Shown: positions 5,984 to 6,165 of the stretch, one piece after another
Numbering within the stretch: position 1 is the stretch's first letter
Layout: every line of letters starts with the position of its first letter
Origin: an uncultured Verrucomicrobiae bacterium
GTDB lineage: Bacteria > Verrucomicrobiota > Verrucomicrobiia > Chthoniobacterales > Xiphinematobacteraceae
Direction: 5' to 3'
DNA length: 64,000 nucleotides
NCBI GenBank assembly: GCA_963706715.1
Contig: CAVPNI010000002.1
Span: forward strand, 576,001 to 640,000
The notes under the pieces: generated by a model
What the model was told of the DNA's origin: nothing
The model's input: the letters and a program-made list of their open reading frames with translations, nothing else
Databases searched by the model: none
Made by a program: the position numbers and the translations under genes

Positions 5984-6165
5984 GTAAGGTTGCTCAGGTC
6001 AAGCTGTAAAATGGCCGGCGTTTCTATGGAGCGTAAAAAGCCCGCATCGTAGATTGGCTCCGGTCCGCTGCACACGTATTTTTTGGAGAACGCAAAGTTT
6101 CCCGCTGGGTAGATTTGTCTACAATATGTCAACGGACCGGCAGCTTTGGCCTGAGCACACCTTAC
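5984..6165 (+). ncRNA. Putative bridge-RNA-like structured ncRNA of the IS110 element
   Basis: Outer stem 5984-6006/6141-6165, inner stem CCGGTCCG/CGGACCGG, two paralogous motifs CCCGC-NNN-GTAGATT at 6041 and 6101, located upstream of the IS110 ORF. Confidence 0.65.

Follow-up and report, generated by a model that had tools for sequence, protein, structure and literature searches.

An IS110 element whose bridge RNA appears to read both donor halves on one strand, and a candidate folded single-stranded donor

The window analysed here, the whole stretch of 64,000 nucleotides from an uncultured Verrucomicrobiae bacterium, holds what by its sequence appears to be an active IS110 element with a real bridge RNA, one that would work like IS621 but break the IS621 rule of donor pairing. 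In all likelihood, the 5' donor guide of this RNA repeats the sequence of a segment that lies some 20-30 nt in from the left end, in the sense of the 3' donor guide, so that both guides would be complementary to one strand. The best reading, to which we give a probability of roughly 60%, is that the donor is one folded strand that imitates an opened duplex and integrates by single-strand exchange. We lean, with some reserve, towards extending this to a widespread IS110 branch, with relatives in at least 10 phyla and including ISPpu9. There, the excised single strand would fold into a pre-opened pseudo-duplex of which the donor loop reads one strand, and RNA-programmed insertion of single-stranded DNA cargo would proceed through the top strand only, with no second-strand synthesis and no Holliday-junction resolution.

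How IS110 elements move is disputed, both as to single- or double-stranded circles and as to one or two exchanges: a Holliday-junction model (PMC11208158, PMC13626964) is opposed by copy-out and top-strand models (10.1101/2025.10.25.684509, 10.64898/2026.08.31.748434). Here and below, statements on published systems refer to the accessible parts of the papers cited. The end sequences of the present clade appear to hold the answer to this dispute. If our reading is true, these enzymes would have a new mode of action, in which the guides recognise the two halves of the element's end along a single DNA strand folded back on itself and not on a duplex. Furthermore, genome engineering would gain a distinct tool in a bridge recombinase whose natural donor is a folded single strand, and reprogramming this branch by the IS621 rule would edit the wrong donor bases.

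The element, its copies and its bridge RNA

The main features are as follows (window positions, with evidence in brackets).

5929..5937, + strand: left target flank RGTTCGTAG including the AG core (5936-5937), within a host repeat array of 7-bp units (11/11 copies, empty repeats, run X2)
5938..7511, + strand: IS110-family element (copy comparison)
5984..6165, + strand: predicted bridge RNA, an enclosing stem round a target-binding loop and a donor-binding loop (folding, consensus and arm-pairing tests)
6036..6235, + strand: 200-bp segment absent from 6/11 of the genome's own copies (copy comparison)
6186..7493, + strand: IS110 recombinase of 435 aa, with D15/E58/D95/D98 and S329 (PF01548, PF02371, NF033542, alignment, structure match)
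7507..7513, + strand: right end of the donor with the AG core, the match of the right donor guide (copies, guide match, run contig)

The element measures 1574 bp and is flanked by two AG dinucleotides. Eleven copies with both ends are present in this genome, with flanks that differ between copies: the left flank ends in RGTTCGTAG in all 11, and right flanks are variable. Empty copies of the host repeat carry this motif once, which places the element boundaries (5938-7511) between the two AGs. A contig of a public sequencing run confirms the right end at 7513, and run X2 has a contig with a further left flank of the same type. No RNA run was listed among the sequencing runs that contain this sequence, and no end-to-end joint was present over 5800-7640 in the contigs of four DNA runs; we count neither blank as evidence.

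Five of the 11 copies are full-length, each with 0-1 substitutions. The other six are deletion derivatives with one common loss, which takes the right target guide, the entire donor loop, the start codon and the first catalytic Asp. These derivatives keep their DNA ends, lack the 3' half of the RNA and occupy six separate sites of one target; they were thus very probably mobilised in trans. Since they moved, the region 6036-6235 would be dispensable as DNA in cis.

The target is a dispersed intergenic host repeat family, made of arrays of 7-bp units of the GTTCGTA / GTTGGTG type with small hairpins. Such arrays flank the element, for example at window positions 5870-5937 and 7514-7590, and RGTTCGTAG occurs at 180 sites genome-wide. 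The element is intergenic, with an OprB-family porin (3481-4989), an Rrf2 regulator (5090-5566) and a pyruvate phosphate dikinase (7634-10471) as neighbours. One deletion copy and one full copy lie in tandem, 9 nt apart, in one heptamer array (C1:150857 and C1:149467, - strand). Two deletion copies at different sites (C1:782632 and C4:375813) carry insertions of 245 and 1648 bp at the same point (window 6544) and both lack 268 bp at 7043; this derivative, broken twice, has nevertheless moved.

We compared this element with its relatives. A genome scan gave at least 605 confirmed relatives, of which the best 80, at 35-65% identity, were used. Of these best 80, 79 had enough upstream DNA for alignment with the window copy, yielding 71 distinct guide sets, with guides read from alignment columns and not from DNA ends. 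A right end and an inverted repeat could be called in 57 of the 71 sets (7 truncated, 6 unmatched and 1 short set were excluded), and 47 of the 57 also had a left end and flank; one locus whose right end was misplaced by the automatic end calls (L061) was kept in the counts. The tree is a quick version, midpoint-rooted and without an IS621 outgroup, with 6 loci lacking an intact frame. As relatives are not independent, z-scores are overstated; we therefore used 23 disjoint pairs of closest relatives among the best 80 as a control for kinship. Orientation relative to GC skew shows no bias, either in the genome's own copies (8/11) or in relatives (19/36, among the best 80 of at least 605), and coupling to the replication fork was dropped for lack of a strand bias.

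The 435-aa gene product carries PF01548 and PF02371 and passes NF033542. Among the best 80 of at least 605 relatives, the D/E/D/D residues are invariant in 61/61 aligned sequences, and the catalytic serine position (alignment position 329) is S in 53/61 and T in 8/61. For the predicted structure, a confident model (pLDDT 91.5), IS621 is the top fold match (E 2e-9, TM about 0.5/0.7), and a profile search against PDB also returns IS621 (E 2e-18); phmmer with the single protein against PDB gave no match.

The predicted RNA lies in the 248-nt left end, 5' of the recombinase gene. A sequence-only reading of this DNA had seen there two similar modules ending in GTAGATT at 6055 and 6115, inside a closing stem of about 23 bp. 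Both observations hold: the module alignment scores 37, a value reached by 0/2000 shuffles, and 5984-6006 pairs with 6141-6165 over 23 bp. The + strand folds at -77.4 kcal/mol (z -6.5; 0/200 shuffles as stable), and the - strand with a z of -5.0. That reading had also proposed an architecture unlike IS621, with a single enclosing stem. The stem stands: in 70/70 sets from the best 80 of at least 605 relatives, an element's own 5' and 3' arms form a better duplex than the median swapped pair, with means of -21.5 and -10.5 kcal/mol, respectively. The loops are, on the other hand, of the IS621 type, with stem, internal loop and inner hairpin. The consensus fold of the best 80 shows two adjoining stem-loops, both interrupted by an internal loop and topped by an inner hairpin, and compensatory changes at 22/28 consensus pairs (50-sequence alignment from the same 80); the enclosing stem is absent from this consensus because it is poorly alignable. 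Rfam over 5600-7700 returned one chance-level match and none within 5984-6165, and a promoter scan of the linear region found nothing above shuffles (1 site versus 2.4 expected). It is nearly certain that 5984-6165 is the bridge RNA of this element.

One may ask whether the structure is instead only a translational-control 5' leader of the transposase message, or a DNA-level signal, and not a guide RNA. The end of the enclosing stem and the start codon are 20 nt apart, and the homologous 244-nt leader of ISPpu9 represses translation, a control described together with an antisense RNA, Asr9 (PMC8450116). We consider this highly improbable as the whole explanation, since the loop sequences track target and donor across phyla (best 80 of at least 605 relatives) and copies without the region still moved, so that it is not required in cis as DNA. 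A leader role is, besides, compatible with guiding.

Guides of the two loops

The terms LTG, RTG, LDG and RDG for the guides, and the term handshake, are taken from the IS110 literature. The guides, together with the internal segment discussed below, are placed as follows.

6017..6025, + strand: left target guide with the CT that stands for the core (pairing canonical in the clade, though weak; 0-3/7 against its own 11 right flanks)
6046..6054, + strand: right target guide 6046-6052, ending in AG, plus handshake dinucleotide 6053-6054 (guide covariation)
6074..6082, + strand: left donor guide, a same-sense match to 5956-5964 (guide covariation)
6106..6114, + strand: right donor guide 6106-6112, equal to right end plus AG, with handshake dinucleotide 6113-6114 (guide covariation)
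5956..5965, + strand: displaced 'left donor' segment, with a pseudo-core TA at 5964-5965 (same sense as the left donor guide, 8/9 identical; clade covariation)

The sequence-only reading had flagged two short matches as guide segments. Both are present: TCGTAG at 6047-6052 equals window 5932-5937, the left target flank plus AG (genome-wide per-position frequency 1.7e-4), and TGGGTAG at 6106-6112 equals 7507-7513, the right end plus AG (3.7e-5). Their role as guides is borne out by the relatives, in which, among the best 80 of at least 605, they change with the target flank and with the right end. In these best 80, the 7-mer of module 1 that ends in AG has a perfect match upstream in 42/64 sets, against 0.9% with the guides of other loci, and the corresponding 7-mer of module 2 has a perfect match downstream of its own gene in 43/57 sets, against 1.3%. 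Ends determined independently of guides agree: in 7 multi-copy genomes with 32 copies, the right end falls at the guide AG in all but one copy. In the 7 genomes, the left spacer is common to copies up to the AG; two more genomes show one end each. As for the core, the invariant part in the clade is AG alone (CT on the antisense strand); that both ends have the four bases GTAG in common is a peculiarity of this element.

The extra conserved target bases RGT have no counterpart in the guide and are present at 128/262 intergenic TCGTAG sites. They copy the right end at the same positions, a likeness that scores 3.23/5 versus 2.45 in the clade (best 80 of at least 605 relatives). This suggests that the RGT flank may be read by the protein.

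IS621 uses its 3' guides for the top strand and its 5' guides for the bottom strand (PMC11208160). Here, the 3' guide is identical to the gene strand, so that the antisense strand takes the place of the top strand and the core is CT. On these matches, the cut ('top') strand for the guides is the one that lies opposite the gene, and the polarity is the reverse of that of IS621. The pairing of the left target guide and the handshake positions, both treated below, agree with this assignment. Among the 47 elements from the best 80 of at least 605, the right-side core varies (AG 39, AA 4, AC 4), and the left-side core is AG in 47/47, left calls being partly circular. Right-core variation with a fixed left AG is expected if the cut follows CT and the right core comes from the target. 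The IS621 handshake rule has guides match the partner strand after exchange (PMC11208158). In the 47 elements (from the best 80 of at least 605), the first handshake position follows this rule on the antisense strand, with 0.53 versus 0.27 and 0.47 versus 0.24, and one cross comparison shows avoidance (0.04 versus 0.29); the handshake bases of the present element itself do not fit its sites.

The opposite-side guides, which the sequence-only reading could not locate, are present at 6017-6025 (target) and 6074-6082 (donor). Across 47 elements from the best 80 of at least 605, the left target guide agrees with the reverse-complemented right flank at 2.81/7 positions versus 1.86 by chance, and that of the present element matches 0-3/7 at 11 sites, a poor fit to every site. 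A folded-back target, in which this guide would match in the same sense, was rejected: no excess is observed upstream (5.94 versus 5.79) or downstream (6.12 versus 6.02) in the best 80 of at least 605, so that the target is read canonically. At core-reading positions, with a register that may shift by 1-2 nt, right guides have AG in 47/47, left target guides CT in 10/47 and left donor guides CT in 0/47 (best 80 of at least 605). Such decay in the left guides is expected if second-strand cutting is relaxed.

The left donor guide departs from IS621 in a way that the sequence-only reading missed: it is displaced. In the present element, 6074-6082 matches 5956-5964 at 8/9 positions, with a chance of about 0.002 for an 8-mer in 60 nt. 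Over 47 elements from the best 80 of at least 605, the left donor guide agrees in sense with the stretch that immediately precedes the left inverted repeat and matches it at 6.60/9 positions, versus 3.63 when permuted (maximum 4.30 in 2000), with a peak at offsets 0 and +1 only. Scored over 7 positions in the same 47 elements, the internal segment reaches 5.28/7 versus 2.98, and the canonical core-side position stays at chance (2.91/7 versus 2.66 permuted). This test is not circular, as ends are set by the right guides and the repeat by the right-end sequence. The signal is present in both sub-groups of relatives among the best 80. Two other placements were discarded: the IS621 orientation gives 2.83 versus 2.86 (47 of the best 80 of at least 605), and the reverse complement of either the internal segment or the first left-end bases is likewise at chance level in the best 80.

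Could the left donor guide be vestigial, its likeness to the internal segment stemming from an old local duplication or gene conversion, with the right guides alone at work? The match is imperfect in many relatives (10/47 elements from the best 80 of at least 605 match at only 3-5 of 9 positions) and ambiguous in ISPpu9-like loci (5/9 internal versus 4/9 canonical), and the left target guide is demonstrably loose (2.8/7). We nevertheless hold a vestigial guide to be quite unlikely, because guide and segment change together across very different sequences. In the 23 pairs of closest relatives from the best 80 of at least 605, joint changes are concordant in 37/55 cases versus 10/37 in the canonical register; the pairs also include 19 guide-only and 31 DNA-only changes. 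The fixed register and the bias of mismatches also speak against decay: among 113 guide mismatches in the best 80, 32 are of the wobble type with the antisense strand and 10 of the mirror type, T-rich guides contributing to this excess.

Candidate fold of the element ends

Three further features are found at the ends.

5944..5956, no strand assigned: DNA cap hairpin with a 5-bp stem (7 bp antisense), centred between the core and the internal donor segment (folding; clade test)
5968..5978, + strand: left subterminal inverted repeat, 30 nt in from the left end and a perfect 11-bp partner of 7499-7509 (sequence, folds)
7499..7509, + strand: right subterminal inverted repeat, pairing with 5968-5978 (sequence, fold)

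This arrangement recurs in the best 80 of at least 605 relatives. The best 8-nt window of the inverted repeat matches at 6-8/8 positions in 56/57 elements, and the distance from core to repeat is 29-37 nt in 46/47, within an overall left range of 29-41 nt. The spacer between them folds better than shuffles (mean z -1.3, versus 0.05 for a flank control). A cap hairpin is foldable in 38/47 elements of the same 80, versus 15.8 in shuffles, and its loop lies at most 1 nt from the midpoint between core and pseudo-core in 32/47 (shuffles: mean 4.7, maximum 12); a clear cap is absent in 9/47. In the present element, the predicted circle junction consists of a repeat stem, an open bubble and the cap, at -12.3 kcal/mol for the antisense and -11.6 kcal/mol for the gene strand. 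The segments bound by the two donor guides are antiparallel and unpaired in this predicted fold, a geometry that would be that of an opened duplex donor.

We propose the following model, which we draw from sequence. The recombinase would peel the antisense strand out as a single-stranded circle, whose junction may fold on itself into inverted-repeat stem, open bubble and cap hairpin. The fold would set the two guide-bound segments antiparallel, like the two strands of an opened duplex donor. A single strand exchange could then join the folded circle to the target duplex on its CT strand, and the host would finish the insertion by replication or repair. A second exchange would not be used, because it would cut off the cap, yet every copy keeps it; at the pseudo-core, such an exchange would also leave hairpin ends. 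Several observations weigh against the model: neither folding energy nor orientation singles out a strand, some elements match the left donor guide poorly or have no clear cap, the handshake bases and left target guide of the present element fit its sites badly, CazIS110-1 did better with a double-stranded donor at one junction, and in ISPpu9 the guide match is ambiguous, minicircles still formed when the A-box repeat was mutated, and the junction moved when bases next to the left AG were altered.

The same pairing might also occur on a double-stranded supercoiled circle or on the chromosome, where the junction would extrude as a cruciform of which the enzyme uses one arm. A cruciform accounts for all of the left-donor-guide covariation, and double-stranded IS110 circles are reported (PMC11208160). 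The folds themselves are about equally good on both strands: fold energy shows no antisense preference (17 elements antisense, 29 gene strand, of 47 from the best 80 of at least 605; p 0.38), and stem wobbles in these best 80 lean to the gene strand (28 versus 15). Nevertheless, a cruciform would require about 55 bp to be unwound with a large unpaired bubble. In addition, IS621-type systems rebuild a promoter at the circle junction, but ISPpu9 circles form none according to the accessible part of PMC12288879, so that the duplex circle has no known role there. We regard the cruciform as unlikely.

A further explanation leaves the duplex closed: the left donor guide would bind the internal segment in ordinary duplex DNA, as a half-match of another recombinase dimer. 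The segment could then be an accessory site that assists synapsis or lets the element repress its own promoter, exchange would be carried out by the right guides alone, and the hairpin would be incidental or protein-bound. Half-match recombination is documented for IS621, which releases circles by donor-only half-matches as well. Taken as a complete second donor site, the internal segment had to be rejected: in the best 80 of at least 605 relatives, it has no CT core and no right-guide match near the core, as expected of a half-match. In ISPpu9, mutation of the A-box inverted repeat did not stop minicircles from forming, as judged by qualitative PCR (PMC12288879); this result also fits a fold that acts after excision, without proving it. 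What the half-match leaves unexplained is the hairpin at the midpoint in 32/47 elements despite differing spacer lengths and sequences, and the constant distance of core to repeat in 46/47 (both among the best 80 of at least 605). We therefore give it a low probability and prefer the folded single strand as donor.

Comparison with known systems

In the peel-and-paste elements of the IS200/IS605 group, such as IS608, subterminal DNA hairpins make the single strand the substrate. IS608 uses an HUH tyrosine enzyme, is not known to need a guide RNA for insertion and shows a lagging-strand bias. The present element resembles it in its subterminal hairpins and differs in showing no replication bias.

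With the seekRNA elements of the IS1111 group, it shares long subterminal inverted repeats (7-17 bp in IS1111, 11 bp here) and the order of guides, the one complementary to the gene-sense target strand coming first (PMC11187229). As this order was already reported for IS1111, polarity by itself is no novelty. Relative to the gene, the RNA is upstream here and downstream in IS1111, and terminal extensions are 30 nt and 2 nt plus core, versus 7 and 3 bp in IS1111 (PMC11187229).

Likeness to IS621 extends to the DEDD and Ser recombinase, the CT core, the handshake positions and the short right guides (PMC11208160, PMC11208158, PMC13626964), and to an RNA in a long left end, with a target loop before a donor loop and an inner hairpin in each. 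The differences are several. Our protein is about 100 aa longer, with 18% identity; the core is read on the antisense strand, one long stem encloses both loops, and the ends carry 8-11-bp subterminal repeats with a cap hairpin. In IS621, all four guides read the core and the donor guides pair with opposite strands, the left one with the bottom strand beside the core. That rule failed here: the left guides do not conserve CT, and the left donor guide matches a same-strand internal segment, not core-adjacent bases.

IS621 releases a single-stranded circle by top-strand-only excision, and CazIS110-1 integrates more than 1,300-fold more through the top strand and accepts top-strand single-stranded DNA, with the caveat that a double-stranded donor was about 20-fold better at one junction (10.1101/2025.10.25.684509; 10.64898/2026.08.31.748434). 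In the copy-out models for these two elements, the two donor guides each pair with a different strand of a duplex junction, and the circle is believed to become double-stranded before it inserts, whereas the sequence here may encode a one-strand donor that folds on its own.

The clade itself is already known, through ISPpu9 and also from the tree table of Durrant et al. Our full-text literature search, which had most subscription papers outside its scope, found no description of same-strand donor guides or of a folded donor, and no mapping of guides in the ISPpu9 clade. A recent large survey kept only RNAs with donor guides on opposite strands and at most 10 nt from the core, a criterion that filters out the present layout by design. 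Three deviating bridge-RNA clusters in Fig. S12 of 10.64898/2026.10.21.760802 could bear on novelty, and the exact ISPpu9 mutant bases in Fig. 8 of PMC12288879 could bear on the model.

Other relatives illustrate the variety of settings. Three plasmid loci with 39% identity are inserted at the same position of apparent IS3-type elements and have the same end layout. A second IS110 family (nine loci; 10 matches, 34% identity) has a 4-5-nt variable stretch between the conserved flank and the element start, and one copy lies beside CRISPR-like repeats. Five ISPpu9-like left ends stop inside the donor loop or just past the target loop, which recalls the RNA-truncated derivatives of the present genome. 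Five sequences like the ISPpu9 A box, with no other part of the element, are embedded in palindromic repeats on metagenome contigs and form an inverted pair in two cases. The left end may have arisen from a host repeat, or may give rise to one.

ISPpu9 of Pseudomonas putida, too, has AG as its core; its A box measures 43 bp and includes an inverted repeat, and its B box measures 16 bp (PMC12288879). As we read Table S2, the A box comprises 7 nt, a 14-nt hairpin, 7 nt, 2 nt, 5 nt and a 6-bp repeat that pairs with the B box. This symmetry of A and B boxes is the same as that of the ends described here, and non-autonomous derivatives of ISPpu9 likewise move in trans (PMC12288879). ISPpu9-like loci have 37% protein identity and nest among the sampled relatives, with an SH-aLRT of 100 with one of them (tree without IS621 outgroup; best 80 of at least 605). 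Judged by AG core, boxes and related transposase, the present element belongs to the ISPpu9 group. The two differ in their targets, REP sequences for ISPpu9 and a heptamer array here; nor does the accessible part of PMC12288879 map guides or propose a folded donor. Both a transcript and circles have been shown for ISPpu9 (PMC12288879, PMC8450116), altered bases right after the left AG shift its junction, and its authors propose a role in integration for the A-box palindrome (PMC12288879). As transposition and minicircle assays exist for ISPpu9 in a laboratory strain, our model can be tested there with a few point changes. If true, the folded donor would account for the so far unexplained A-box palindrome of ISPpu9.
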